The notes: generated by a model from the letters alone, not told the origin. DNA of 64,000 nucleotides from Nitrospirota bacterium (GCA_963796285.1 CAWCKW010000012.1:1216001-1280000), one strand, 5' to 3'. Shown: positions 27,666 to 42,910, counted from the stretch's first letter. Numbers and translations are program-made.

Positions 27666-27681
27666 TGCAACCACAGTGCCA
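27666..27681 (-). promoter_or_regulatory. sigma54 promoter
   Basis: Minus strand TGGCACTGTGGTTGCA is a perfect -24/-12 match, about 45 bp upstream of the ATG at 27622. Confidence 0.88.
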
Positions 27682-29670: not shown

Positions 29671-31002
29671 CTATTCTGATTTCAAAATCCTCCACAAGCT
29701 TGTCCGCGAGATTCCCAGGACCTCCGCGGCTTTTGACTTGTTGTCACCATACATTTCGAGTATCTTCTCTGCATAATCTTTATTGAGTTCCTCGATAGTC
29801 CTGACCTTGTCCGGCTCGATCGTTTCTATCTGGAACATCTTGATGTTCTGGGGCAGGCTGGCCGGCGTTATCACGTCACCCTTCTCGAGGATGATCGCCC
29901 TTTCCACGATGTTCTCCAGTTCCCGCACATTGCCCGGGTAACTGTAATGCATGAGTACTTCGAGCGCATCTTTCGTGAAACCCGTGATCTTCTTGCGGGA
30001 ACTGAGGACATGCTTTTCCAGGAAATAGGAGCAGAGCGGCAGGATGTCGTCCCGGCGGTCACGGAGCGGAGAGATGGAGATCTCCATGATGTTCAGCCGG
30101 TAGTACAGGTCCTCCCGGAAGCGTCCCTCGGCAATGATGGACCGTACGTTCTGATTGGTGGCCGCGATGAAACGAACGTCGACCTTGACCGGCTTGATTC
30201 CGCCCACGCGGTAGAACTCCCCTTCTTCAATCACCTTGAGCAGCTTGGCCTGGAGACCAGAGGCCATTTCGGCTATCTCGTCCAGAAACAGCGTGCCCGT
30301 GTCGGCAATCTCGACGAGCCCCTGCTTGGTCTTGACCGCACCGGTAAAGGCACCCTTTTCGTGGCCGAAGAGCTCGCTCGCAAGCAGTTCCTCGGTCAGC
30401 GTAGCGCAATTGATGGAAAGAAACGGCATGCCCTGCCGCCGGCTCGTGAAATGGATGATCTTTGCCAGGAGGCTCTTACCCACACCCGTTTCACCGGTCA
30501 AGAGCACGTTGCAGTCCGAGTCTTTCATCCCCTCGATCGTGCCGAGGATGTTGCTCATGCTTGCGCTCCTGGCGATGATCGAGACCTTTTTGTCCATGCC
30601 CGCATAGGCCTTCAGTGCGATATTCTCCTTCTTCAGGATCTTCTGATCGCGGATTTTATTAACCTTCAGGACCAGTTCGTCCAGGTCGAAAGGCTTGGTA
30701 ACATACTCGATGGCGCCCTTTTTCATAGCCTCGATCGCAGAACCGATGCTGCCGAAGCCCGTGATGATGATCACCTCGACCTCGATCTGTTTCACTTTGA
30801 TCTTTTCGAGCAGTTCAATGCCCGTGAGCCCCGGCATCTTAATGTCCGCGATCAAGAGGTCAAAGGAATCCGACTCGATCTTCGCGAGGGCATCGAGCCC
30901 GTTCAGTGTACTCGTGACCAAGTAACCTTCAGCCTTGAGCGTGTTCACGAGGTGCTTTACGGTAATCTCTTCGTCTTCCGCGATAAGTATTTTGAATGCC
31001 AT
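29671..31002 (-). CDS. sigma54-dependent response regulator
   Basis: REC domain, GETGVGKS, SELFGHEKGAFTGA and HTH. Confidence 0.95.
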   Translation of the reverse strand: MAFKILIAEDEEITVKHLVNTLKAEGYLVTSTLNGLDALAKIESDSFDLLIADIKMPGLTGIELLEKIKVKQIEVEVIIITGFGSIGSAIEAMKKGAIEYVTKPFDLDELVLKVNKIRDQKILKKENIALKAYAGMDKKVSIIARSASMSNILGTIEGMKDSDCNVLLTGETGVGKSLLAKIIHFTSRRQGMPFLSINCATLTEELLASELFGHEKGAFTGAVKTKQGLVEIADTGTLFLDEIAEMASGLQAKLLKVIEEGEFYRVGGIKPVKVDVRFIAATNQNVRSIIAEGRFREDLYYRLNIMEISISPLRDRRDDILPLCSYFLEKHVLSSRKKITGFTKDALEVLMHYSYPGNVRELENIVERAIILEKGDVITPASLPQNIKMFQIETIEPDKVRTIEELNKDYAEKILEMYGDNKSKAAEVLGISRTSLWRILKSE

Positions 31003-31245: not shown

Positions 31246-32817
31246 TTACAAAGCCCTGGGCATGGTGATCGTAAAGACCGTACCCTTCCCTTCATCGCTG
31301 GTCACGCTGATATCTCCATAGTGCTTCCTGACGATGTTGAATACGATGGCCAGCCCCAGTCCTGTGCCCTTGTCCTTTGTGGTGAAAAAGGGCTCGAAGA
31401 CCTTTTCCTGAGACGCCTTCGGCATGCCCTTGCCACTGTCGGAAACAGTAATGGTAATGGCCTCGCCAACGGTCCTGATCCTCACCGCCAGCGTTCCTCC
31501 ATCCGGCATAGCCTCCACTGCATTGGTGAAAAGATTGATGAAGACCTGTTCCATCAACTCCGGGTCCGCCATCAGGATGGAGTCGAGTGGTCCGGCATCC
31601 AGCGCAAAGTGTGCCTGGGACGTATCCGCGGTCAGTTTTTTGTAGACATGGTCGATCAATTCGGCCAGATTAATCCTCTGCAGGCGGGGCTCACGTCCCC
31701 GGGCGAACTCCAGGAGATCTCCCACGATCCGTTTCACCCTGACTGTCTGGCCCAGGATGTCCGATACCGCTTCATGCAGGACCGGAGAACCGCTTTCACC
31801 GGCCTGCTTCGCAAGCACTTGGGCCGAGAGATGAATGTTGTTCAGGGGGTTGTTCAACTCGTGGGCAACCCCGGCGGCGAGCGTTCCGATGGCGGCCAGC
31901 TTTTTGGTTTGGATCAGCTCCTTGTTCTTGCGTTCCAGCTCCGCTTCCCGCAAGGAAAGTTCGTCCTCCATCGTATTGAACTTTTCGATCAGCACTCCCA
32001 CCTCGTCAGCGGCATTGCCGCGTGAAGGGGACACAGATAGATGCGGGTAGGAGCCCTTGCCCGTTCTCTCTACGACATTGATCAGCAGCATGAGTCTCTT
32101 CACAACGTTCGTACTGATGAAGAACAGCATGCCGATGCCGACAATGAAAAAGATCGGGAAAAAGATAAGAATGGCGACCTGCGATACCCGTATCACCGTC
32201 TCGGCCTTTTCCCGGGCGATCTTGTCGAGGTCCTTGGAGATGACCAGGATCTCTTCCCCGGTTTTCCTGAGTGTCAGGATGTCCGCATCGAGCGCCCGGA
32301 GGCCGGTGAGCAGAACATGACCGCGCGGCAGAAGGAACACCTTTTCAAGAAATTCAGCAGACTGGACAGGCCGTTCGAGGAACGTGGCCTCCACAAGTGA
32401 AAAATATTTTTTTTCGTTCTTCCCGTATGACGTTTTAGCCCTCTCAAAGACATCGGTCAAACGCTTAGCCTCGACCTCGATAGCTGCAAAACTCCGTTCA
32501 TATTCATGGATCCGGTCCCGCAGAGAAAGCTGGTCCGACCGATCGATCCCGGGGTTCTTCGCCAGGGTGTCGTTGAGCTCGGCAAGATAGGCATGGACCG
32601 CCGCCAGCTCTTCATCCATCTTCTGCGGACTGTAGAGGAAGAAATTCTTCTCGTGACGCCGGAGCTGGAGCGACTTGCGGCTGATCGTATCCGTGATCTC
32701 GAGATAGCGGATCTCTTTTTTGATCTCGACAAAGCTGAAATATTCGAACGCGGCAAGGACGGCGATGATGAAGGCGCTGATAAAAAAGCTGAGGACTATT
32801 TTTTTCTTAAGCGACAT
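31246..32817 (-). CDS. Sensor histidine kinase
   Basis: Two TMs, LRRHEKNFFLY sensor motif, [11 protein letters not shown] and HATPase boxes. Confidence 0.93.
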   Translation of the reverse strand: MSLKKKIVLSFFISAFIIAVLAAFEYFSFVEIKKEIRYLEITDTISRKSLQLRRHEKNFFLYSPQKMDEELAAVHAYLAELNDTLAKNPGIDRSDQLSLRDRIHEYERSFAAIEVEAKRLTDVFERAKTSYGKNEKKYFSLVEATFLERPVQSAEFLEKVFLLPRGHVLLTGLRALDADILTLRKTGEEILVISKDLDKIAREKAETVIRVSQVAILIFFPIFFIVGIGMLFFISTNVVKRLMLLINVVERTGKGSYPHLSVSPSRGNAADEVGVLIEKFNTMEDELSLREAELERKNKELIQTKKLAAIGTLAAGVAHELNNPLNNIHLSAQVLAKQAGESGSPVLHEAVSDILGQTVRVKRIVGDLLEFARGREPRLQRINLAELIDHVYKKLTADTSQAHFALDAGPLDSILMADPELMEQVFINLFTNAVEAMPDGGTLAVRIRTVGEAITITVSDSGKGMPKASQEKVFEPFFTTKDKGTGLGLAIVFNIVRKHYGDISVTSDEGKGTVFTITMPRAL

Positions 32818-32908: not shown

Positions 32909-33763
32909 TTACGATTTTACCACTAGCACGGGACAGGGTGCATGTCCGATGACCTTCTCCGCCACGCTCCCCATGAGAAGCCTGCGGAGACCGGTCCTGC
33001 CATGGGACCCGATGACGATCATGTCGGCATTCTGTTCCTTCGCAAGCTTGGTGATGGCCTCGAAGGCTTCGGATTCGCCAACAAAGGTCTCGGCCTTCAC
33101 CCCTTCGGCGTCGGCTTGTTTTTTCACATCAGCGACAAAGCCCTTTGCCTTTTTGACCAGATCGTCAACCGCCTGAGGCGCTTCCGCATAAAACTCGGAA
33201 GGGACGTCCACGACCGAGACGATCTTCAATTCCCCGCCGTAGGACTTCGCAAACGAGATCGCCCGGTCAGCCGCAAAAGCGCTGTACTTGGAGCCGTCCG
33301 TCGCGAGCACGATCTTTTTCCATCCGATGACCGTGCTGCTGGGCACGACAAGGACATCCCGCTGGGTATAGCCGATGACGCGTGCCGTCACCGGCCCGAT
33401 CAGGGAGCGCTCGATGCGGCGCTTCCCCCGCCGGCCCATGACGATGACGTCGCAGTTCTCGGCATCGGCAAGGTCCACGATCCGTTCGTGGATCTCGCCC
33501 TCTTCACAGACCGTCTTGACGAGCATCCGCTCGGTCTTTGCTATCGTTTCCACCTCCGCGAGCGCATCTTCGCAGGGTTTCCTGAGTGCGGCCCTGATGT
33601 CCTTGACGCCGACGAGCTCGATCTCGCCTTCGTAGGGCGGGACCACGGACGTGACCGTTATCCAGCACTTCTCCTCATTGGCCAGCTTGAACGCCTGGTG
33701 AAGAGCATTCCTGCTGGATTCCGAACTGTCGACAGCGACAAGGATCTTTCTATACTTCCCCAT
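32909..33763 (-). CDS. Tandem universal stress protein
   Basis: YRKILVAVDSS, DVIVMGRRG and IVIGSHGRTGLRRLLMGSVAEKVIGHAPCPVLVV. Confidence 0.93.
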   Translation of the reverse strand: MGKYRKILVAVDSSESSRNALHQAFKLANEEKCWITVTSVVPPYEGEIELVGVKDIRAALRKPCEDALAEVETIAKTERMLVKTVCEEGEIHERIVDLADAENCDVIVMGRRGKRRIERSLIGPVTARVIGYTQRDVLVVPSSTVIGWKKIVLATDGSKYSAFAADRAISFAKSYGGELKIVSVVDVPSEFYAEAPQAVDDLVKKAKGFVADVKKQADAEGVKAETFVGESEAFEAITKLAKEQNADMIVIGSHGRTGLRRLLMGSVAEKVIGHAPCPVLVVKS

Positions 33764-34829
33764 GCTCCAGCGCCCCCGAGGCATGCTGCAGTCTCTCGGC
33801 CTGGCGACCCTTCCACATGGCGCGCAGAACGATGAAGGCGCCGAGCATCAATGCGAATATCATTATAGCAAAGCTGGTGTTTTTGAGCAAACTCACCGTG
33901 CCGTCGCCAAGTTTATCGATGAGCCCGAGCTGTGCCAGGTACACCGGGACCATGAGGCCGCGGCTGAAGAGCACGATCACCATGATCAGACCCATCACGA
34001 CCTTGATCATGAACGGTTTCACATAGGTAGTACCGATGGCGCCAAGCTGAATGCCGAAGAGCGAGCCGGCAAGGATGATCATGGCGAGCCGGATATCGAC
34101 CAGCCCGTGCATGGCATATTTGAGCGAACCGCCGAGACCCATGACAAAGGCGATCACGAGCTCAGTGGCCGAGGCCATGAGGCTGGGGGCGCCGAGGACA
34201 TAGATCATTGCGGGAACGCCGATGAAACCGCCGACCGCTATCGTTGCCGCCAGCATGCCCGTGGCTAAACCGAGCGGGATGGTAAAGAGGACTGAAACGC
34301 GGGCATTGATACTCTTGAAATAGACCATGGTGCCGGGGATATTGATGGACTGGACCCAGAGCGCCAGTTTTCCTGCTTTTTCTTTCGTGTCCATGTTCCC
34401 GGACTTGTAGGTCTTCCAGGCATCCCGGAGCACGAACCCGCCGACCGTCGCGAGGATCACGACAAAGGCCACGCTCACATAGAGGTTCGATCCCGCATCG
34501 CCGAACGATGCCTTGATCTTTTCCTGGATATGGGCTCCGTAGAGAACGCCGGCCTCCGCGGAAATACCGAGTACGATGCCGAGCTTTACGTCAACCTGGC
34601 CGTACTTGAAGCGCTTGATAGAGCCGACGAGGGCCTTGGGAAACTTATGGCACATGTTGCTCGCCACCGCCACGAGTCCCGGAACGCCCAGGCTCATCAT
34701 GCCGGGCGTGAGCACAAAAGCACCACCTGAACCGATGAATCCGCTTACGAGACCGCCGACAAATCCCACCCCGAACAGATAGAGGATGGTGATCGCGTCA
34801 AGATTAATGAAATTCGTCATACTTTCCAT
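33750..34829 (-). CDS. Sulfite exporter TauE/SafE family protein
   Basis: GFVGGLVSGFIGSGGAFVLTP, AVASNMCHKFPKA and AATIAVGGFIGVP. Confidence 0.9.
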   Translation of the reverse strand: MESMTNFINLDAITILYLFGVGFVGGLVSGFIGSGGAFVLTPGMMSLGVPGLVAVASNMCHKFPKALVGSIKRFKYGQVDVKLGIVLGISAEAGVLYGAHIQEKIKASFGDAGSNLYVSVAFVVILATVGGFVLRDAWKTYKSGNMDTKEKAGKLALWVQSINIPGTMVYFKSINARVSVLFTIPLGLATGMLAATIAVGGFIGVPAMIYVLGAPSLMASATELVIAFVMGLGGSLKYAMHGLVDIRLAMIILAGSLFGIQLGAIGTTYVKPFMIKVVMGLIMVIVLFSRGLMVPVYLAQLGLIDKLGDGTVSLLKNTSFAIMIFALMLGAFIVLRAMWKGRQAERLQHASGALEHGEV

Positions 34830-34830
34830 G

Positions 34831-35082
34831 TTATTTTATCTCCTTCTTTTTTCTGGCGGCCTCGACTCCCAGAATGGTCCAGAAATGACCGGTAAACGTG
34901 CCATGAAAGTATGAAAAAACGAACGCGGTGATGATCGGCAACAGCGCGTACAATCCGCCCTTGGCGAACGTACTGTTGATCAGGTCCTGCTTCAGCAGGA
35001 GGGTCGTGTAGAGCGCTATGGATATGAGACCCATAACGATCATTGCGCCCACCGGCTTCTTCTTTGTGTTGCTTTGTGCCAT
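34831..35082 (-). CDS. Small 2-TM protein, probable TSUP partner
   Basis: 83 aa, motif FSYFHGTFTGHFW, AAGGAGG RBS, abuts the TauE gene. Confidence 0.8.
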   Translation of the reverse strand: MAQSNTKKKPVGAMIVMGLISIALYTTLLLKQDLINSTFAKGGLYALLPIITAFVFSYFHGTFTGHFWTILGVEAARKKKEIK

Positions 35083-35169
35083 GATGATACCTCCTTGAGT
35101 TTATTTATAATCTATGGCTCTCTTCACAGAGAGTACACTTTAAGTGATTTTGATCCCGACTCCTGTGCC

Positions 35170-35674
35170 TCATGCCCGTGCCCCGTCCATGACCACGACG
35201 AGCGGGCATTTCAGCTTCTGCCAGAGTTCCGAAAGCGTCTTGTCCTTCTTGTTGCAGTCCGCGTCCAGGCTGTGCGGGGACTCAATGACCGCGAAGAGGA
35301 TGTCCTTTTCGCTGTTCGTATAATCGATGATCTGCTGCTTGAGACACCCGGTCCGCGGGATTATGCGATAGAGAATTCCTTCCGCTTTGAGCTCTGATTC
35401 AAAGTGTACAAGCAGGGGGTCGACCGGGTGCGCGTTCCCGGCCCGGCGCAGTGACATACAGAATATCGAGGTGCGCGTCGATCCTCTGGGCGGTGTTCGA
35501 TGCATATTTCAGCGTCTTGGCATCGATCCGGCCCTCCTTGAGCGCAAGCAGGACTTTTCGCCCTTCCTTCATAAGCGACGAGGCCGTCACCGCCTCGCCT
35601 GCTTCAGCGAACGTGGCTGCAGCCAGTGCGTCTTCGACGTTCTTCATCATCTTTTTTAACTTTGTCGCTTCCAT
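35170..35674 (-). CDS. Hypothetical USP-like protein with an N-terminal FAEAGE motif (frameshift near 35445)
   Basis: AAATFAEAGEAVTA...LKYASNTAQRIDAHLDILYV, continuing to LWQKLKCPLVVV. Confidence 0.75.
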
Positions 35675-35706
35675 AGTAACCCTCGTGGGATCAGCATTCC
35701 TGGTTC

Positions 35707-35877
35707 TTAGTCAGCGCGCAGTTCTTTTCTCGCGGCCGGTCTCTTGTAGTCATAGGTAGACGGGCGGTCGCTCTTCCTGTCTTCTTTCATGATCTGGCGT
35801 GCAGTCTCAAACTCTCCTGCTTCCGCGAATGTCGCGGCCACCATTGCTGTTTCGAATTTATTGAGTAAGGTTTTCAT
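35707..35877 (-). CDS. 56-aa FAEAGE-motif peptide (not in the ORF track)
   Basis: Manual translation MKTLLNKFETAMVAATFAEAGEFETARQIMKEDRKSDRPSTYDYKRPAARKELRAD*; strong AAGGAGG RBS; first gene after a sigma54 promoter. Confidence 0.85.
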   Translation of the reverse strand: MKTLLNKFETAMVAATFAEAGEFETARQIMKEDRKSDRPSTYDYKRPAARKELRAD

Positions 35878-35924: not shown

Positions 35925-35940
35925 TTCAACTCCTGTGCCA
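35925..35940 (-). promoter_or_regulatory. sigma54 promoter (variant -12)
   Basis: Minus strand TGGCACAGGAGTTGAA, about 48 bp upstream of the ATG at 35877. Confidence 0.7.
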
Positions 35941-36144
35941 AAGCACAAAAGCAAGATAACATGCTGATAGCATATGATTATTTACAAGGAGGGCAAAATC
36001 GGTACCCATACACAACTGTTTTATAATGCAATACTCTTTTACGAAATAGACGCTACCTGTTGATTTTTATGATTAATTTTGGCTGTTGCATCAAAACGGG
36101 AAACGTTGTAAAATGCAACCATATCGAGATTTCAGGGGAGTCTA

Positions 36145-38153
36145 ATGAAGTTCTTTAAAAAATCGGAAGACAGCTATCAGGAACTCATCATTGAAGAACT
36201 TCGTCAGAAGATCTCGGCAGGCCGCCATGCCGAACCCTGTCCAGAAGATCGCTGAGCAGGAACTCGATCTGCTGACCAGGATCAGCGCTGCCTCAGCCGA
36301 GTACACGATCGGCGTCACCTACATCGACTACCTCGTTTCCCTGCCCTGGAACAAAAAGACCGAGGACAACCTCGATATTGTCCGCGCCGAGCGCATCTTG
36401 AACGAGAACCACTACGGTCTGAACAAGATCAAAGAACGGATCATGGAGCACCTCGCCATCAAGGTGCTCATCATGAACAGGAAGGCGCGGATAATGGTCG
36501 TCGATGATGAGGAGATCGCTCGAAAAAACCTGGCGCATATCCTGACGAAAGAAAATTACGATGTGGTCGCAGTCGCCGACGGCGAAACCGCGCTCCGGGA
36601 GCTGGAGTCCTCGGAATTTGACGTGGTGCTGACCGACCTGCGCATGGGCAAGATGGACGGCATGGACCTGCTGGACCGTATCAGGATAAAACACATTGAC
36701 ACGAAGGTCGTGATGGTGACGGGCTTTGCCACGGTCCCATCGGCCATCGAGGCCATGCGGAAGGGCGCTTTCCACTACCTGGCCAAGCCCTATCAAACTT
36801 GATGAGGTACGCGAAACCGTGAAACGGGCATTGGAACAGCGGGCGCTCAAACCCAGCACCAAGGGCTCCGTACTCTGTTTCGCCGGCCCCCCGGGAACCG
36901 GCAAGACCTCGCTCGGGAAGTCCATCGCCCGGGCTCTTGGCAGAAAATTCACGAGGATCGCCCTCGGCGGCCTCAAGGATGAGGCCGACATCCGCGGACA
37001 CCGGCGCACCTACGTGGGCGCCAAGCCCGGCAGGGTGATCGAAGAGCTCCGCAGGGTGGAATCCGCCAATCCCGTCATCATGCTCGACGAACTCGACAAG
37101 ATCGGACATGACTTCAAGGGAGACCCCGCATCTGCCCTGCTTGAAGTGCTCGACCCGGAGCAGAACCGCGCCTTCACGGACCATTATCTGGACGTCCCCT
37201 TCGACCTTTCGAGCGTCATGTTCATTCTGACCGCGAACGTGCTCGACACCATTCCCGCCCCGCTGCGCGACCGCATGGAGGTCATCGAGTTCAGGGGCTA
37301 CACGCGGGAAGAAAAGGTCCGCATCGCATCGCAGTTCCTCTGCACCAAACAGACACGCGAAAAAGGCCTCTCCCTAAACCAGGTGGTCTTCACTGATGAG
37401 GCCGTGGACAAGATCATCCAGGAATACACACGCGAGGCCGGCATCCGGAACCTCGAGCGAAGGATCGCCACGATCTGCCGCAAGATCGCCCGGGAATCGC
37501 TCCAGAACGCGGGCAGCGCGGAGATCGTGACCATAACCCCCGCGTCCGTGGAGCACTACCTGGGGCGGAAAAAGTTCCACTTTGATGTGATCGAGGAGCA
37601 GGACCGGATCGGCGTGGCCACCGGCCTCGTGCGCACGGAATCCGGCGGCGAGATCATCTTCGTCGAGGCGGCAAAAATGAAAGGCAAAAAAGAACTCATC
37701 ATCACCGGCTCGCTCGGCGACGTGATGCGCGAATCCGCCCAGGCAGCGCTGAGTTACATCAGGAGCAATGCCGACGCCTTCGGCATCCCTGATGACTTTT
37801 TCGAGCACCACGATATCCACATCCACGTACCGTCGGGGGCGATCCAGAAGGACGGGCCCTCTGCCGGCGTCACCATCCTGGCCGCGCTCCTGTCGCTGTT
37901 GACCAAACGGCCGGCACGCAGGGACGTGGCCATGACCGGCGAGATAACGCTGACCGGCCGGATACTGCCCGTCGGCGGCATTCAGGACAAGGTCCTCGCG
38001 GCCAGGCGGGCAATGGTCAAACTCGTGCTCGTGCCCGCACGGAACCGGGCCGACGTGGAAGAACTGTCCGATGACCTGCGAAAGGACGTCGACATCCGCC
38101 TTGTCGACACCGTGGCCGACGTGGTTGACGCGGTGCTGACCGGCCATCAATGA
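36145..38153 (+). CDS. Lon (La) protease lacking the N-domain, with an inserted receiver domain (frameshifts near 36220 and 36792)
   Basis: [28 protein letters not shown] (VVDDEE/LTDLRM/MVTG/AKP), [36 protein letters not shown] and GGIQDK. Confidence 0.9.
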
Positions 38154-39679
38154 TGAACTACACCCCGAGCATCAGACAGAAGATCACCCTCGGCTACTTC
38201 GCCATCGTGGCCATGATCATCGGTTTGTCCGTGTTCACCTTTCTGGAACTGCGGTACATCGAGAAGAAGATCATGTTCGGCGAGGCCATCTCGGAATTTT
38301 TCGACACCACGCTCGAGGTCCGGCGCTTCGAGAAGAACTTCTTCCTGTACGAAAAGCAGCCCGATTACGATGAGAACGTCCAGTACGTGTCCCGGGCGCA
38401 GGACATCATCGACAACAACATCAAGGGGTTCACCGCCATCGCGTCGTCGGACCAGATATCGTCCCTCCAGGTCAGCCTGAAAGAGTACAAAGACCTCATG
38501 GAGCAGTACGCGAAGACCGGCGGCGGGCAACCTGCCCGAAAGACCATGCTGGCCGCGAAGATCCGCGTCACCGGGAAAGACATCATCACCATTTCCGAGG
38601 AAATCTCGAAGACTGAGCGAAAGAGCCTTCAGCAGATCCTGAGCAGCTCCCGGAACATCCTCCTCATATCGATCATGCTCCTCTCACTGGCCGCGATCGC
38701 GATCGGCCAGATCCTGTCGCGCATGGTGGTAAAACCGCTCAAGTCCCTTGAAGAGAGCATGGGAGTGATCGCCGAAGGGGAATTCGAGCCGATCGCGATC
38801 GACTCCAAGGACCGGGAGATCGTCTCGCTCACGAGGGCCTTCAACAAGATGCTGAAGCAGCTGGAGCTGCACGAGAGGCACCTGATCCAGTCCGAGAAGC
38901 TCGCTTCCCTCGGCACCCTCCTGTCCGGCGTGGCGCATGAATTGAACAATCCCCTGTCGAACATCTCGTCGTCGAACCAGATCCTGATGGAGGAATTCAG
39001 GGAAGCCCTTGAAGCGCGGTCTCCCCGGCCCTGGCCCCTGGATCCCGACTTCACCAAGGAACTGATGGCGCAGATCAACGAGCAAACGGACCGGGCGAGA
39101 AATATTGTCCGTTCCCTGCTCGACTTTTCCCGTAACCGGGACTTCAAGAAGGAATCGGTATCGCTCAAGAACCTGTTTGAGGAAACAATCCAGTTCGTAA
39201 AGGGACAGGTGCCGGCGAAGGCGGGGATCTCGCTCGCCGTACCCGATGACCTGGTCATAGTTGCGGACAAACAGCGGCTCCAGCAGGCATTCCTGAACCT
39301 GATCAAGAACGCCCTCGACGCGATCGCGCCGAATGAAGGAACGATCACCATCAAGGCGGAGAAGCGCCGGGCCATGGACGATCTCGAAGACGAGATGATC
39401 GGCATCCACAACTACCTAAAATACCGGGGCAAGTGCACGCTGGACCAGGACACCGTAGACATCGAGATCCATGACAGCGGCTCCGGCATTCCGCTTGAAT
39501 TCATCCAGAAGATCTTCGACCCCTTTTTCACGACCAAGGACGTGGGCAAAGGATCAGGCCTCGGCCTCTACATCGTGCACGAGATCATCGAGGAGCACGA
39601 CGGCTGCATCGCCGTTGACAGCGAACCCGGCAGGGGCACAACGTTCCTGATACGGCTTCCGCTCGTAGACAAGGCATAA
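38150..39679 (+). CDS. Sensor histidine kinase (HAMP)
   Basis: [28 protein letters not shown] and FDPFFTTK; overlaps the lon stop. Confidence 0.93.
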
Positions 39680-39688
39680 TTTTTATCA

Positions 39689-39732
39689 CCTCCCCTCCTC
39701 CCTCTCATGCGGGAGAGAGCCGGGGTGAGGGG
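39689..39732. repeat. Short REP-like palindrome (CCCTCTC...GGGAGAG...GGGGTGAGGG type)
   Basis: cctcccctcctccctctcatgcgggagagagccggggtgagggg lies between the kinase and regulator genes. Confidence 0.5.
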
Positions 39733-39751
39733 TATCCAAGGAGCAACAAAC

Positions 39752-41113
39752 ATGCAAGGTGTGGCAAAACTACTCATCATCGACGACGAGCGGATCGCGC
39801 TCAGGAACCTCGAGCACATCATGAAGAAGGAAGGCTACGAAGTGACCGGCACGCAGAACGGGCCGAACGCGCTCAAGCTGATCGAGGAGCAGCACTTTGA
39901 CGTGGTGCTCACGGACCTGCGCATGGAAAAGGTCGACGGCATGCAGATCCTGAAAAAGACACGGGAGCTCTACCCGGACACGGAAGTGATCATGATCACC
40001 GGCTACGCAACGCTTGACTCCGCCGTCGATGCCATGAAGCACGGCGCGTTCTATTATATCGCCAAACCCTTCAAGCTCGAGGAAGTCCGCAAGGTCGTCC
40101 AGGAGGCCGTGCACAAGGTCCGGCTCAAGACCGAGAACCGTCATCTCCGGGAACAGCTTGAGACCTACCAGGGCAAGGTCAAGATCATCACCCAGGACCC
40201 GACCATGCAGAAACTGCTCGAAACCGCGCGCCAGATCGCGCCCACGGACTGCAACGTGCTGATCTCGGGCGAGAGCGGCACGGGCAAGGAGCTCTTCGCC
40301 CGCTTCATCCACCTGAACAGCAAGCGCGCCGAGGGGCCGTTCTTCGCCATCAACTGCGGCGCGTTCACCGAGGAGCTCCTCTCGAACGAGCTCTTCGGCC
40401 ACGAAAAAGGCGCGTTCACCGGCGCAAACGCCATGAAGAAGGGGCTCATCGAGATGGCTTCCGGCGGGACCCTGTTCATGGATGAGGTCACCGAGATGCC
40501 GTCGTCCATGCAGGTCAAGCTCCTCCGGGTGATCCAGGAGCGGGAGGTGCTGCGCGTCGGCGGGACCGAGTCGATCAACGTAGACGTGCGGTTCGTGGCA
40601 GCGACGAACCGGGACATCCATGATTCCATGAAGACCGGCTCATTCCGGCAGGACCTTTACTTCAGGCTGAACGTGGTCTCGCTCCGCATCCCGCCGCTGG
40701 CGGAGCGCAAGGACGACATCCCCCTGCTCTGCTACTATTTTTTAAAGAAATATAACCTGCTTATGAAAAAAGTGGTGACCGAGATCGCGGAGGACGTGAT
40801 CGCCCTGCTTCTGAACTACGACTTTCCGGGAAATGTGCGGGAGCTCGAGAACATCATCGAACGCGGCGTGGCGCTCACGAATGGCAGCGTTATTGAGACC
40901 GGCCATCTTCCTGAAGACCTGCGGGAGCTCAGTATCAAGACCTTCCGGAAAAAAGAAGGAAAGATCCCCTCGCTCGAGGAGCAGGAAGAGGCCTACATCA
41001 AATGGGTGCTCGGCGAAGTCGGCGGCAACAAGACGCTCGCCGCGCAAATCCTCGGCATCGACCGGGTCTCGCTCTGGCGGAAGCTCAAGAAGTACGGGCT
41101 GGAGAGCGACTAG
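39752..41113 (+). CDS. sigma54-dependent response regulator
   Basis: REC domain, GESGTGKE, ELFGHEKGAFTGA and HTH; start MQGVAK follows a GGAG RBS. Confidence 0.95.
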   Translation: MQGVAKLLIIDDERIALRNLEHIMKKEGYEVTGTQNGPNALKLIEEQHFDVVLTDLRMEKVDGMQILKKTRELYPDTEVIMITGYATLDSAVDAMKHGAFYYIAKPFKLEEVRKVVQEAVHKVRLKTENRHLREQLETYQGKVKIITQDPTMQKLLETARQIAPTDCNVLISGESGTGKELFARFIHLNSKRAEGPFFAINCGAFTEELLSNELFGHEKGAFTGANAMKKGLIEMASGGTLFMDEVTEMPSSMQVKLLRVIQEREVLRVGGTESINVDVRFVAATNRDIHDSMKTGSFRQDLYFRLNVVSLRIPPLAERKDDIPLLCYYFLKKYNLLMKKVVTEIAEDVIALLLNYDFPGNVRELENIIERGVALTNGSVIETGHLPEDLRELSIKTFRKKEGKIPSLEEQEEAYIKWVLGEVGGNKTLAAQILGIDRVSLWRKLKKYGLESD

Positions 41114-41293
41114 ACATTTCTGCCGCGGGAATCAATCTGTCCGTTACTGTCATCTGCGGCGTGACTTGCGGTAAGCTTTTAGGGTAAGGTTTTTTGTCAC
41201 GACATTATGAAGTAATTTCTTCCTTGCGTTCTTGCTGTCTATGCGGTAACACATCATCTCGCCACAGGAGTGGAGCTTGCGGTGCCAGTAAAT

Positions 41294-42910
41294 ATGGACA
41301 ATTCGGGGATAAGTGCCGAGCACTTGAGGATCATCTACGAGAATTCACCCCTCGGCATCGAATTTTACGACGCCGAAGGGAGCCTCATCAACGCGAATCG
41401 GGCTTGTCTGGAAATGTTCGGTGTCACGGACATTTCAGCGATAATTAAATTCAACCTGTTTGACGATCCGAACTTGAGCGAACAGCACAAGAACGAGCTC
41501 CGCGAGGGCGGAACGATCAAACAGGAGATCTCCTTCGATTTTGCGAAGGTCAGGGAGCACAACCTCTATCCCACCTCAAAACAGGGGACGGTCTATCTTG
41601 ACCTGGTCATCACGCCGCTCCTCTCGCCCGACGCGAAGTCGAACATCGGTTACACCGTCACTGTCCGTGACATCACCCTCCGGCGGAACGCGGAAGCAAT
41701 GCTGCTGGAGCAAAAGAATTTTTCAGAACAGGTGATCGATAAGTCCGCGGTCGCTGTATTCGTCCTTGCCCACGACCATACGGTCGTTCTCTGGAACAGG
41801 GCGTGCGAAGAACTCACCGGGGTCCGCGCCGCGGAGATGATCGGCACGAGCAATCACTGGAGGCCGTTCTATGAACAGCAGCGGCCGACGCTGGCGGACA
41901 TCATTCTCGAGAACGAGCACGAGACGGTCTCCCTGCTCTACGCAAAGAGTGGCAGGTCCACCCTTATTCCGGACGGCATCCGCGGCGAAGGCTGGTACGC
42001 AAACATGAATGGAAAAAACCGGTACATCGTTTTTGACGCGGCCCCCCTCTATGACACCAAGAGCTGTTTGATCGGAGCGATCGAGACCCTGCACGACATG
42101 ACGGATTTTCGTCGGACCGAAGAGGACCTGGAGCGGAGGACGCTGGAACTCGTGAGATCGAACGCGGAGCTGGAGCACTTCGCCCATATCGCCTCGCATG
42201 ACCTGAAAGAGCCGCTCTTCACCATCGCCGGGTTTGCCGAGGTGCTCCAGGACAAGTATGAGGACCGGCTCGATGACAAGGGCAGGTCGTATCTCTCCCG
42301 CATCGTCGAGGGAACCCTTCGCATGGAGCGCCTGATCAATGACCTTTTGGCATATGCCCGCGTGACCTCGCAGGCCAGCCCCTTCGAGCCGGTCGCGTGC
42401 GCAGCCGTATTGGAGGAGGTCCTTTCCAATCTCAAGGCGGCGATCGACGAGAGTAACGCCACGATTACGGCTGATGACCTCCCGACCGTGATGGGCGACA
42501 AGACCCAGCTGGTGCAATTGTTCCAGAACCTGATCGGTAATGCGATCAAGTACCGGCGGGACGCGTCCCCGGTGATCCGCATCTCTGCCGCACCAATCCA
42601 GGAACCGCAGGAGGGCAAGGCTGACAATGCCAGAGAACAACCGCTTGCCCGCGATGCTCATAGACGTGATGGACGAGGATGGATTTTTTCCGTCTCGGAC
42701 AACGGCATCGGCATCGAGCCGCGCTATTTCAAAGAGATTTTCAAGATATTTCAGCGCATCCCCTTGCAGGAGAAAACCTATTCGGGAACCGGCATCGGCC
42801 TCGCGATCTGTGAAAAAATCGTGGAACGGCACGGCGGCCGCATCTGGGTCGAGTCCGAGCCGGGCAAGGGCACCACGTTTTACTGGAACCTGTTTACCCA
42901 CCATGAGTGA
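41294..42910 (+). CDS. Cytoplasmic PAS-PAS histidine kinase
   Basis: Two PAS domains, ASHDLKEPL, QNLIGNAIKY and GTGIGLA. Confidence 0.9.
   Translation: MDNSGISAEHLRIIYENSPLGIEFYDAEGSLINANRACLEMFGVTDISAIIKFNLFDDPNLSEQHKNELREGGTIKQEISFDFAKVREHNLYPTSKQGTVYLDLVITPLLSPDAKSNIGYTVTVRDITLRRNAEAMLLEQKNFSEQVIDKSAVAVFVLAHDHTVVLWNRACEELTGVRAAEMIGTSNHWRPFYEQQRPTLADIILENEHETVSLLYAKSGRSTLIPDGIRGEGWYANMNGKNRYIVFDAAPLYDTKSCLIGAIETLHDMTDFRRTEEDLERRTLELVRSNAELEHFAHIASHDLKEPLFTIAGFAEVLQDKYEDRLDDKGRSYLSRIVEGTLRMERLINDLLAYARVTSQASPFEPVACAAVLEEVLSNLKAAIDESNATITADDLPTVMGDKTQLVQLFQNLIGNAIKYRRDASPVIRISAAPIQEPQEGKADNAREQPLARDAHRRDGRGWIFSVSDNGIGIEPRYFKEIFKIFQRIPLQEKTYSGTGIGLAICEKIVERHGGRIWVESEPGKGTTFYWNLFTHHE

Follow-up and report, generated by a model that had tools for sequence, protein, structure and literature searches.

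A Lon-type protease with a built-in receiver domain in a conserved histidine kinase and sigma-54 activator module of Nitrospirota

The locus described here lies in a Nitrospirota bacterium (GCA_963796285.1 CAWCKW010000012.1:1216001-1280000). The whole stretch of 64,000 nucleotides that was analyzed is referred to as the window, and positions are counted from its first letter. A Lon-type protease gene that also encodes a receiver (REC) is followed by genes for a histidine kinase (HK) and a sigma-54 enhancer-binding protein (EBP), and a string of five genes runs away from it on the opposite strand. The features are as follows.

32909-35877, minus strand: divergent string of five genes
32909-33784, minus strand: tandem Usp protein (Usp, 2.8e-64)
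33750-34829, minus strand: TauE-family anion exporter (TauE, 6.1e-34)
34831-35082, minus strand: 83-aa membrane protein
35170-35674, minus strand: Usp-like gene, 167 aa, weak Usp match, frameshifted near 35440
35707-35877, minus strand: 56-aa FAEAGE-motif peptide
35926-35940, minus strand: predicted sigma-54-type promoter, TGGCAC-N5-TTGA, one mismatch, facing the divergent string
36026-36119, no strand assigned: three conserved TGCAA(T/C)/GTTGCA boxes (36026-36032, 36084-36090 and a palindrome at 36105-36119)
36145-38153, plus strand: REC-Lon gene, about 668 aa once read through, broken in the assembly by two single-base insertions
36145-36480, plus strand: N-terminal helical region, five helices, residues 1-111, corresponding to Thermus thermophilus Lon residues ~243-348, with no LonA N-domain ahead of it
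36218-36220, plus strand: first extra base, whose removal gives ISAAAMP or ISEAAMP, matching relatives
36488-36836, plus strand: inserted receiver, residues ~115-230, with acidic pair, phospho-acceptor Asp in TDL, Thr, switch Tyr and Lys-Pro
36793-36794, plus strand: second extra base, whose removal gives AKPYKLDEV, matching relatives
36870-37511, plus strand: AAA+ core and Lon lid, with Walker A GPPGTGKT, Walker B DE, sensor-1 Asn and Arg finger
37533-38138, plus strand: Lon_C S16 protease domain, dyad Ser and Lys invariant
38150-39679, plus strand: membrane sensor histidine kinase (HAMP, HisKA, HATPase_c), two hydrophobic segments by eye
39707-41113, plus strand: sigma-54 enhancer-binding response regulator (Response_reg, Sigma54_activat, HTH_8)

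In the window, REC-Lon is spread over three plus-strand frames (36145-36255, 36149-36802 and 36720-38153 in the ORF listing). The second frame carries the Pfam match to Response_reg (1.8e-28), and the third carries AAA, Lon_lid and Lon_C (1.4e-82). The first-pass annotation had attributed this to two single-base frameshifts in one gene, and the window sequence does contain one extra base at each site; its reading of the second junction, AKPIKLDEV, was wrong and is corrected to AKPYKLDEV. Both extra bases are absent from all homologs aligned and from contigs of all four public metagenome runs, which come from four studies. At the first break, one letter is missing at 36218 in runs X2 and X5 and at 36220 in X1 and X4; at the second, it is missing at 36793 in X1 and one X5 contig and at 36794 in X2, X4 and X5. 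These near-identical contigs show no other listed indel over 36100-38200, and in alignments to relatives coding conservation runs on across each break.

A third frameshift is located in the adjoining Usp-like gene. Three frameshifts inside 3 kb (two in lon, one in this neighbor) would fit a true pseudogene in the source organism and a decaying regulon, but we consider this very unlikely, given the contigs that read through both sites and the unbroken coding conservation. Essential genes elsewhere in the assembly are also split, i.e., two class-I aminoacyl-tRNA synthetase genes fall into 3 and 2 frames, and relatives with few contigs have split kinase genes as well (L037, L039 and L043). Because the runs lack the extra bases, and because the neighboring gene and the two synthetase genes are broken alike, both frameshifts in REC-Lon are most likely assembly errors and the gene is probably a single open one in nature. 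The intact orthologs, each in one open frame, agree with this joining of the frames. Frameshifts of this assembly should not be taken as biology.

An intact ortholog from the same genus (L036, 668 aa) shows the domain order directly: Response_reg at 116-225, AAA at 243-383, Lon_lid at 405-454 and Lon_C at 463-664. The substrate-binding domain of LonA, which is MEROPS S16 subfamily A (LON_substr_bdg, PF02190), had no Pfam match either in the window pieces or in this ortholog, and the protein begins at a position equivalent to T. thermophilus Lon residue ~243, in agreement with the earlier claim that the LonA N-domain is missing. The AAA+ module and lid (PF00004, PF22667) and the Ser-Lys protease domain (PF05362) are present, and the TIGR00763 score is 754.6 bits (cut-off 608). 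Walker A and B (GPPGTGKT, D314/E315), N364, R376, S572 and K615 are invariant in 37 family sequences. The genome also encodes two full-size LonA genes. By these sequence features, REC-Lon is an accessory LonA-type ATP-dependent protease with predicted ATPase and protease functions, and it belongs to the family of DVU3303 of Desulfovibrio vulgaris (see below).

Alignment to solved LonA structures falls into two blocks, residues 16-111 and 234-666, which correspond to 10-105 and 102-532 of Bacillus subtilis Lon (3M6A) and to 243-348 and 354-775 of T. thermophilus Lon (7P6U). The receiver is therefore inserted, and some 235 residues at the LonA N-terminus are gone. The insertion is clean, lying between strand beta1 and the helix that precedes it, ahead of the Pfam AAA core. 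It had been placed inside the AAA+ module, a description that depends on the domain borders chosen; those usual for E. coli Lon would presumably put it inside the A domain. An AF2 model has a pLDDT of 83 overall and 86-92 in the receiver, with short linkers at 112-114 and 231-241.

Like LonA proteins of E. coli, B. subtilis (3M6A), M. taiwanensis (4YPL) and T. thermophilus (7P6U), REC-Lon has the AAA+ module, lid and S16 protease domain, with 35-41% identity over aligned columns and a target-normalised TM-score of up to 0.86. It differs from them by the missing ~235 N-terminal residues, i.e., the substrate-binding domain and long helix, and by the 120-residue receiver before beta1. No solved structure with a receiver inserted in Lon was found, the query-normalised TM-score being at most 0.71. 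The membrane anchor of LonB and the coiled-coil insertion of LonC indicate that the Lon ATPase module tolerates inserts (PMC3391209, PMC9569914). The insert of REC-Lon is of another kind and at another place. LonC is without ATPase activity; REC-Lon has retained a LonA-type sequence with every ATPase motif.

The receiver was described at first pass as complete, with acidic pair, phospho-acceptor Asp, Thr and Lys-Pro, and its homologs bear this out. All 37 sequences have D120, D121, D164, K214 and P215, at least 90% of them have T192, and 34 of 35 Lon receivers have the aromatic switch Tyr (K-3). This pattern, which spans Nitrospirota and Desulfobacterota members, supports a canonical and conserved receiver. 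Pseudo-receivers exist in other families, and the domain could in principle be one, never phosphorylated and acting only as a structural spacer; we came across no specific support for this, and the (near-)invariance of every one of these residues across the two phyla makes it extremely improbable.

The architecture is real and widespread. A search for it recovered an intact family: among the 120 matches listed (411-699 aa), PF00072 and PF00004 occur in 120/120 and PF05362 in 117/120. Another search, at E<=1e-60, yielded 651 clusters, among them sulfate reducers in culture (Pseudodesulfovibrio, Maridesulfovibrio and Solidesulfovibrio), and members from Desulfovibrionaceae were found at three of the loci studied (L066, L067 and L072). 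In a sample of the phylum, 33 of 201 genomes had a match, the window's own genome included. The matching frame in the latter is only 217 aa; in the 32 others the protein lies in one open frame (31 genomes, 462-809 aa) or is truncated at a contig end (one genome).

The kinase and activator genes are persistently associated with lon. The kinase ATG and the lon stop codon overlap by 4 nt, and the activator likely starts at 39752, which would give the 453 aa seen in orthologs. Conservation of the lon-HK-RR neighborhood, proposed earlier as a check, was examined in two sets of loci; the HK and EBP genes lie near the protease in 18/20 and 15/17 of them, even though order and strand vary. In most of the 14 loci labelled Desulfobacterota or Pseudomonadota, the HK-EBP pair is upstream or on the other strand. 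At 2 of the 20 loci (L049 and L053) the protease has no cognate pair alongside, which counts against the reading that we prefer below. A PAS kinase gene further downstream (41270-42910) was not counted in the module, because L036 has no counterpart within 3 kb of its activator.

A system of this kind has been described before. According to Rajeev et al. 2011 (PMC3333781), D. vulgaris DVU3303-DVU3305 form a 'three-component system' of a Lon-type protease RR, an HK and a sigma-54 RR; the same text already puts forward activation of the protease by phosphorylation and names orthologs in Thermodesulfovibrio, a genus of the window's phylum. Both that paper and Kazakov et al. 2015 (PMC4641369) report that the activator targets the operon in which it is encoded and a divergent one. 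In both D. vulgaris and the window, REC-Lon stands beside the HK and sigma-54 RR, and a divergent sigma-54 target operon encodes membrane proteins, Usp-type proteins and an anion transporter. The window locus differs in being a Nitrospirota copy, in its lon-HK-EBP operon order and in the overlapping lon and HK codons. Judged by the papers' descriptions and by gene content, it is the DVU3303-DVU3305 system.

The first-pass annotation knew of no characterised Lon regulated in this way. This stands for biochemistry, as no measurement of phosphotransfer, ATPase activity or proteolysis was found for any family member in the searchable literature. It does not stand for the domain architecture, for the synteny of lon, HK and sigma54 RR or for phospho-activation as an idea, all of which were in print in 2011 and are not new. 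A survey of protease architectures (PMC2605481) does not mention receivers. The window brings no new kind of system; its contributions are an operon-ordered copy from Nitrospirota, promoter and operator-like elements that are conserved, and sequence evidence for a kinase-facing surface that the two receivers appear to have in common.

The likeness of the two receivers, reported earlier to include helix 1, was confirmed against the paralogs of the same genome. The Lon and activator receivers are 52% identical (119 bits), the next best paralog being at 41.6% (98 bits), and they are reciprocal best matches among 49 and 59 REC matches. Residues that determine kinase specificity are located in receiver helix 1, according to Capra 2010 (PMC2991266). 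On one face of this helix the two receivers agree at 7/7 positions and 47 other RECs at no more than 3/7, a result that is partly circular because the positions, guided by Spo0F contacts, were picked after the alignment had been seen. When all 15 positions of helix 1 are counted, the activator receiver scores 9 and the best other REC 8. The helix-1 face consensus is the same across 35 Lon/activator pairs, with N16 in 35/35 of both sets.

Evidence from covariation is less telling. Co-varying columns between the two receivers are mostly buried V/I/L positions that track lineage, and the kinase DHp helix pattern is matched in 24/35 kinases and not in 11 (L058, L061 and L064-L072). The receiver covariation and conserved DHp helix fit a shared kinase, but there is too little variation on either side for them to be discriminating. 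The REC tree, made by a quick method, is poorly resolved; a joint Lon/activator cluster has an SH-aLRT of 90 and takes in 2 of 25 other RECs. Taken with the reciprocal matches, the helix-1 data support the view that the Lon receiver is suited to the kinase that also serves the activator receiver.

The predicted sigma-54 promoter facing the divergent string is conserved as TGGCAC-N5-TTG(A/T), with a GTGCCAA block kept in 12 of the 13 intergenic regions that were aligned, and the string itself is kept in 18/20 loci. The TGCAA(T/C)/GTTGCA boxes sit ~90-180 bp upstream of this promoter and are candidate binding sites for the activator. No sigma-54 promoter match was found upstream of lon on the plus strand, and a simple scan of the operon borders found neither a sigma-70-like promoter nor a terminator.

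Our preferred reading, to which we give a probability of about 0.6, is that an N-domain-less LonA-type protease with an NtrC-type receiver works within a conserved HK/sigma-54 module, one kinase acting on both receivers and thereby switching both the protease and the divergent operon. The co-encoded kinase would phosphorylate the two receivers in a branched pathway. The phosphorylated activator would turn on the divergent operon, with its FAEAGE-motif small proteins, Usp proteins and TauE-family exporter, and phosphorylation of the Lon receiver would, by way of the canonical Thr/Tyr switch, change ATPase or ring activity and lead to the degradation of a dedicated group of proteins while the signal is present. 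Phosphotransfer, the direction of its effect on proteolysis and the existence of such substrates are what we infer here.

Two receivers matched to one kinase would also permit competition for phosphate, and Lon degrades two-component regulators in other bacteria (10.1101/2024.02.05.579008, PMC7078487). The Lon receiver might thus be a phosphate sink, or the protease a negative feedback that degrades the activator or kinase; either would oppose the pathway. A mere sink would not need the full conserved set of ATPase and protease catalytic residues, and an antagonist should give the opposite of what Trotter et al. 2023 (PMC10102598) report for D. vulgaris, where the three genes have co-fitness >0.9 and a mutant lacking the protease resembles kinase or activator mutants in its fitness pattern. 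Polarity of insertions in the first gene on the kinase and activator could account for its co-fitness, and could likewise mask an antagonist. On balance, we hold opposition to the pathway to be distinctly unlikely.

The receiver may instead stand in for the lost N-domain as a docking platform, with phosphorylation altering substrate or adaptor binding in cis, as in RssB and CpdR, and not ATPase activity or ring assembly. The absence of the substrate-binding N-domain and the location of the receiver at the junction of the N-terminal region and the ATPase are in keeping with this, and REC-only ClpXP adaptors are an established precedent. Arg14, present in 35/35 Lon receivers where 24/35 activator receivers have Leu, suggests a Lon-specific contact. 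There is no known partner, however, and docking and gating are not mutually exclusive. We regard docking as a less probable mode, though one to be taken seriously.

Known systems offer parallels to the kinase-switched protease that we favor. In RssB-ClpXP and CpdR-ClpXP, AAA+ proteolysis is likewise governed by a two-component receiver; these receivers are separate adaptors acting in trans, whereas that of REC-Lon is in the same polypeptide. In Caulobacter, one phosphorelay feeds both the transcription factor CtrA and the proteolysis regulator CpdR, which is the same branched logic. Sigma-54 activators such as NtrC1, DctD and NtrC also have an NtrC-family receiver directly ahead of an AAA+ domain, and the receiver controls ring assembly in proteins of this type. 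The best solved-structure matches of the REC-Lon receiver are RssB-like 3EQ2, NtrC1 (1ZY2/1NY5) and DctD (1QKK). In REC-Lon, however, the AAA+ domain is a Lon unfoldase with a protease rather than a sigma-54 remodeller, and the REC-to-AAA+ linker has ~11 residues in place of a long coiled-coil helix. If phosphorylation of the built-in receiver does switch Lon, it would be the first case of a two-component kinase acting directly, in cis, on an AAA+ protease, and substrate choice by a Lon lacking the N-domain would also be explained.

With respect to substrates, a highly speculative idea, which we do not expect to hold, is that the FAEAGE helix is a portable recognition tag bound by the phosphorylated Lon receiver. 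In such a signal-gated protease, the kinase would induce tagged proteins via the activator and set their lifetime via the protease, and the phospho-switch would be on the protease and not on the substrate. This helix, of ~25 residues, occurs in the 56-aa peptide, in the Usp-like protein and, elsewhere, in a stand-alone receiver.

The gene for a Lon protease that carries a receiver domain and lacks the N-domain (REC-Lon, window 36145-38153, plus strand) is followed by genes for a histidine kinase and a sigma-54 response regulator, referred to below as the kinase and the activator. The ORF listing and Pfam confirmed the coordinates and domain order that the first-pass annotation had given for the locus.

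36145-36255, 36149-36802 and 36720-38153 (+): REC-Lon coding region, in three frames (ORF listing)
38150-39679 (+): HAMP-HisKA-HATPase_c kinase (Pfam, ORF listing)
39707-41113 (+): REC-Sigma54_activat-HTH_8 activator (Pfam, ORF listing)
41270-42910 (+): PAS-PAS-HisKA-HATPase cytoplasmic kinase, 3' of the activator

In Pfam searches, the second REC-Lon frame contained the receiver domain (1.8e-28), and the third contained AAA, Lon_lid and Lon_C (the latter at 1.4e-82). The kinase ATG overlaps the lon stop in a 4-nt overlap. No counterpart of the PAS kinase was detected in the 3 kb that follow the activator in L036, the locus of an intact same-genus ortholog of REC-Lon. Two full-size LonA frames (808 and 843 aa) occur elsewhere in the window's genome (G000), and REC-Lon is therefore an accessory Lon.

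The breaks in REC-Lon may reflect either assembly errors or pseudogenization. When the first 260 residues were used as a query, the 120 proteins listed were 72-93% identical to it, the majority being 638-699 aa long. Among these listed matches, PF00072 and PF00004 were found in 120 and PF05362 in 117, the three remaining proteins being fragments of 411-475 aa. Aligned relatives start with MKFFKK and have a single frame across both break points. REC-Lon was detected in 33 of 201 genomes sampled in the phylum, G000 included; other genomes gave 32 matches, 31 of them in one open frame (462-809 aa) and one cut by a contig end, and a short frame (217 aa) was seen in G000 only. Window 36100-38200 was also compared with public contigs of four metagenome runs, each belonging to a different study. 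Contigs of all four runs had one letter fewer than the window at each break (36218 or 36220; 36793 or 36794), and no further indels were listed for them in this interval. Removal of the extra letters yielded ISAAAMP/ISEAAMP and AKPYKLDEV, matching the relatives. Additional genes of the assembly are broken: a 167-aa Usp-like gene (minus strand) changes frame near 35440, at residue 78, a class-I aminoacyl-tRNA synthetase gene is divided into three overlapping frames, and a gene with a MetRS-like product start into two (the split synthetase genes are at C13:562279-565069 and C12:1774179-1775413). Because the relatives are intact, the extra bases are missing from all four runs and the assembly has more broken genes, we consider the breaks to be assembly errors rather than pseudogenization, with a probability of about 0.9, and REC-Lon to be a single gene once the two single-base frameshifts are joined, as had been proposed. 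For any broken gene of G000, an error should be the first assumption. Three few-contig relatives, L037, L039 and L043 (genomes G131, G173 and G042), have the cognate kinase gene divided between two ORFs, which suggests the same kind of indel error in other few-contig assemblies.

The L036 ortholog (668 aa, 91% identical) was compared with solved structures and matched LonA in two pieces. Its residues 16-111 and 234-666 aligned with residues 10-105 and 102-532 of Bacillus subtilis LonA (3M6A), and the corresponding pieces of the Thermus thermophilus structure (7P6U) are 243-348 and 354-775. It follows from this two-piece match that the receiver (about 112-233) is a clean insertion and that the first ~235 LonA residues are absent. 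The LON substrate-binding domain (PF02190) had no Pfam match in the ortholog, and the reported absence of the LonA N-domain thus holds. An AlphaFold2 model based on a 37-sequence alignment (mean pLDDT 83.1) has five helices at the N-terminus, of which the last spans 93-111, a (beta-alpha)5 receiver at 115-230 and an 11-residue linker preceding AAA+ beta1 at 242-246. In Foldseek comparisons of this model with LonA chains, TM-scores were at most 0.86 (target-normalized) and 0.71 (query-normalized), and none of the solved structures contained the receiver insert. The protein scores over the cut-off of the NCBIfam lon model, and public records therefore name the family "endopeptidase La" or "S16 family serine protease".

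The receiver is complete, including the phospho-Asp: D120, D121, D164, K214 and P215 are invariant in 37 sequences, T192 is found in 90% or more of them, and the aromatic switch Tyr occurs in 34 of 35 receivers. Also invariant in the 37 sequences are Walker A and B, N364, R376, S572 and K615.

The resemblance of the Lon receiver to that of the activator, helix 1 included, was likewise upheld. The two are reciprocal best matches in G000 (49 and 59 matches), with 52% identity and 119 bits; the next best match has 41.6% and 98 bits. Co-evolving specificity residues of regulators are located in helix 1, according to the available text of Capra et al. 2010 (PMC2991266). On the helix-1 face (positions 10, 12, 13, 16, 19, 20 and 23, counted from the K of KARIMVVDD), the activator receiver is identical to the Lon receiver at 7/7 positions and the 47 other G000 receivers at no more than 3/7, these positions having been chosen after the alignment was seen, guided by Spo0F contacts. 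Over the whole helix (15 positions), the activator scores 9 and the best other receiver 8. The face consensus is likewise found in 35 receiver pairs of other loci. Weaker evidence comes from a quick tree, in which all 34 Lon and 34 activator receivers formed one cluster (SH-aLRT 90) that also took in 2 of the 25 remaining receivers of G000, and the two sets were not separated within it. Co-varying receiver columns (4, 48, 53, 97 and 100) are mostly buried and track lineage.

The architecture, the conserved switch and catalytic residues, the gene linkage and the likeness of the two receivers are observed features. The mechanism considered most likely, with moderate confidence, is that the kinase would phosphorylate both receivers, that the activator would drive the divergent operon, and that the receiver in Lon would gate ATPase or ring activity. 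As an observation the first-pass annotation stands, and its interpretation along these lines is reasonable; its novelty does not stand, as the gating hypothesis was already published (Rajeev et al. 2011, PMC3333781). The available text of that paper describes three Desulfovibrio vulgaris genes (DVU3303-DVU3305), with DVU3303 as a Lon-type protease response regulator, DVU3304 as the kinase and DVU3305 as a sigma-54 regulator. The targets of DVU3305 are its own operon and, upstream, DVU3302-3298, whose products are membrane, hypothetical and Usp-type proteins; the paper also notes that the genes are associated in Thermodesulfovibrio, Thioalkalivibrio and Dechloromonas. The regulon is listed in Kazakov et al. 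2015 (PMC4641369). In the available text of Trotter et al. 2023 (PMC10102598), pairwise co-fitness of the three genes is >0.9, and DVU3299 is called an anion transporter. Gene content of the window agrees with this system point for point, as judged from the papers' descriptions, and the window REC-Lon is a further member of a known family. No study of the biochemistry or structure of a receiver-containing Lon protease came up in literature searches, in agreement with the earlier statement that no Lon regulated in this way has been characterized. Lon might alternatively act as a pure phosphate sink or degrade the activator; the D. vulgaris fitness phenotype of the same sign argues against such roles, but could itself be explained by polarity of first-gene insertions, and we regard them as quite improbable. 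A less likely alternative is that the receiver in Lon serves as a docking platform, rather than as a gate.

An alignment of 13 intergenic regions revealed the following common elements.

35940-35926 (-): sigma-54-type element TTGGCAC-N5-TTG(A/T), with its GTGCCAA block conserved in 12 of the 13 regions
36026-36032: TGCAA(T/C)/GTTGCA box
36084-36090: TGCAA(T/C)/GTTGCA box
36105-36119: TGCAA(T/C)/GTTGCA box, palindrome

The boxes are 90-180 bp upstream of the minus-strand element, a usual position for enhancer sites, and overlap the lon leader; from sequence, they are putative enhancer sites. The sole exact TGGCAC-N5-TTGC match in the window, at 27667-27681 (-), may be a sigma-54 promoter that serves a gene on the minus strand, upstream of the locus.

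Several proteins share a motif of ~25 residues, KFE..M.A.(T/S)FAE(A/E)GE.ETAR, which is covered by no Pfam or NCBIfam model. Its carriers are as follows.

35707-35877 (-): 56-aa peptide
35170-35674 (-): N-terminus of the 167-aa Usp-like protein
L049:2575-3024: stand-alone receiver protein of a related locus, at its C-terminus
L059:7233-7622: two small ORFs in another related locus

Protease, kinase and activator occurred together in 18 of 20 Nitrospirota loci (all except L049 and L053). In those 18, the module is adjoined by a string encoding the 56-aa peptide, the Usp-like protein, an 83-aa membrane protein and a TauE exporter, and 17 of the strings also include a tandem Usp protein; the divergent arrangement of the window is seen in 17 loci, and in L048 the string is downstream on the same strand. 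A scan of named genomes identified 17 receiver-containing loci (L056 and L042 are the same contig), the other 63 being ordinary Lon genes without the insert. The hosts were Thermodesulfovibrionales, Desulfobacter vibrioformis, Syntrophobacter, Syntrophobacteraceae, Desulfomonilaceae, Desulfococcaceae, Desulfonema, Desulfobulbales, Desulfocapsaceae, Desulfovibrionaceae, Desulfocurvus, Desulfovibrio sp. 7SRBS1 and Pseudomonadota-labelled MAGs. Kinase and activator were within 8 kb in 15 of the 17 loci, often upstream or on the opposite strand, and TauE was present in 12. The linkage, whose conservation had been raised as a question, is thus conserved in both sets, with order and strand varying in the named genomes, and its persistence through rearrangement argues for a functional module.

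At the end of the divergent string are a paralogous HisKA/HATPase kinase (31246-32817) and a sigma-54 response regulator (29671-31002), both on the minus strand and ~30% and ~46% identical, respectively, to the lon-linked pair. Four further loci (L036, L037, L043 and L044) have this pair as well, and L045 has part of it; in L053, REC-Lon adjoins a pair of the paralogous type instead of the cognate one. The receiver of the paralogous regulator shares 2/7 helix-1 face positions with the Lon receiver.
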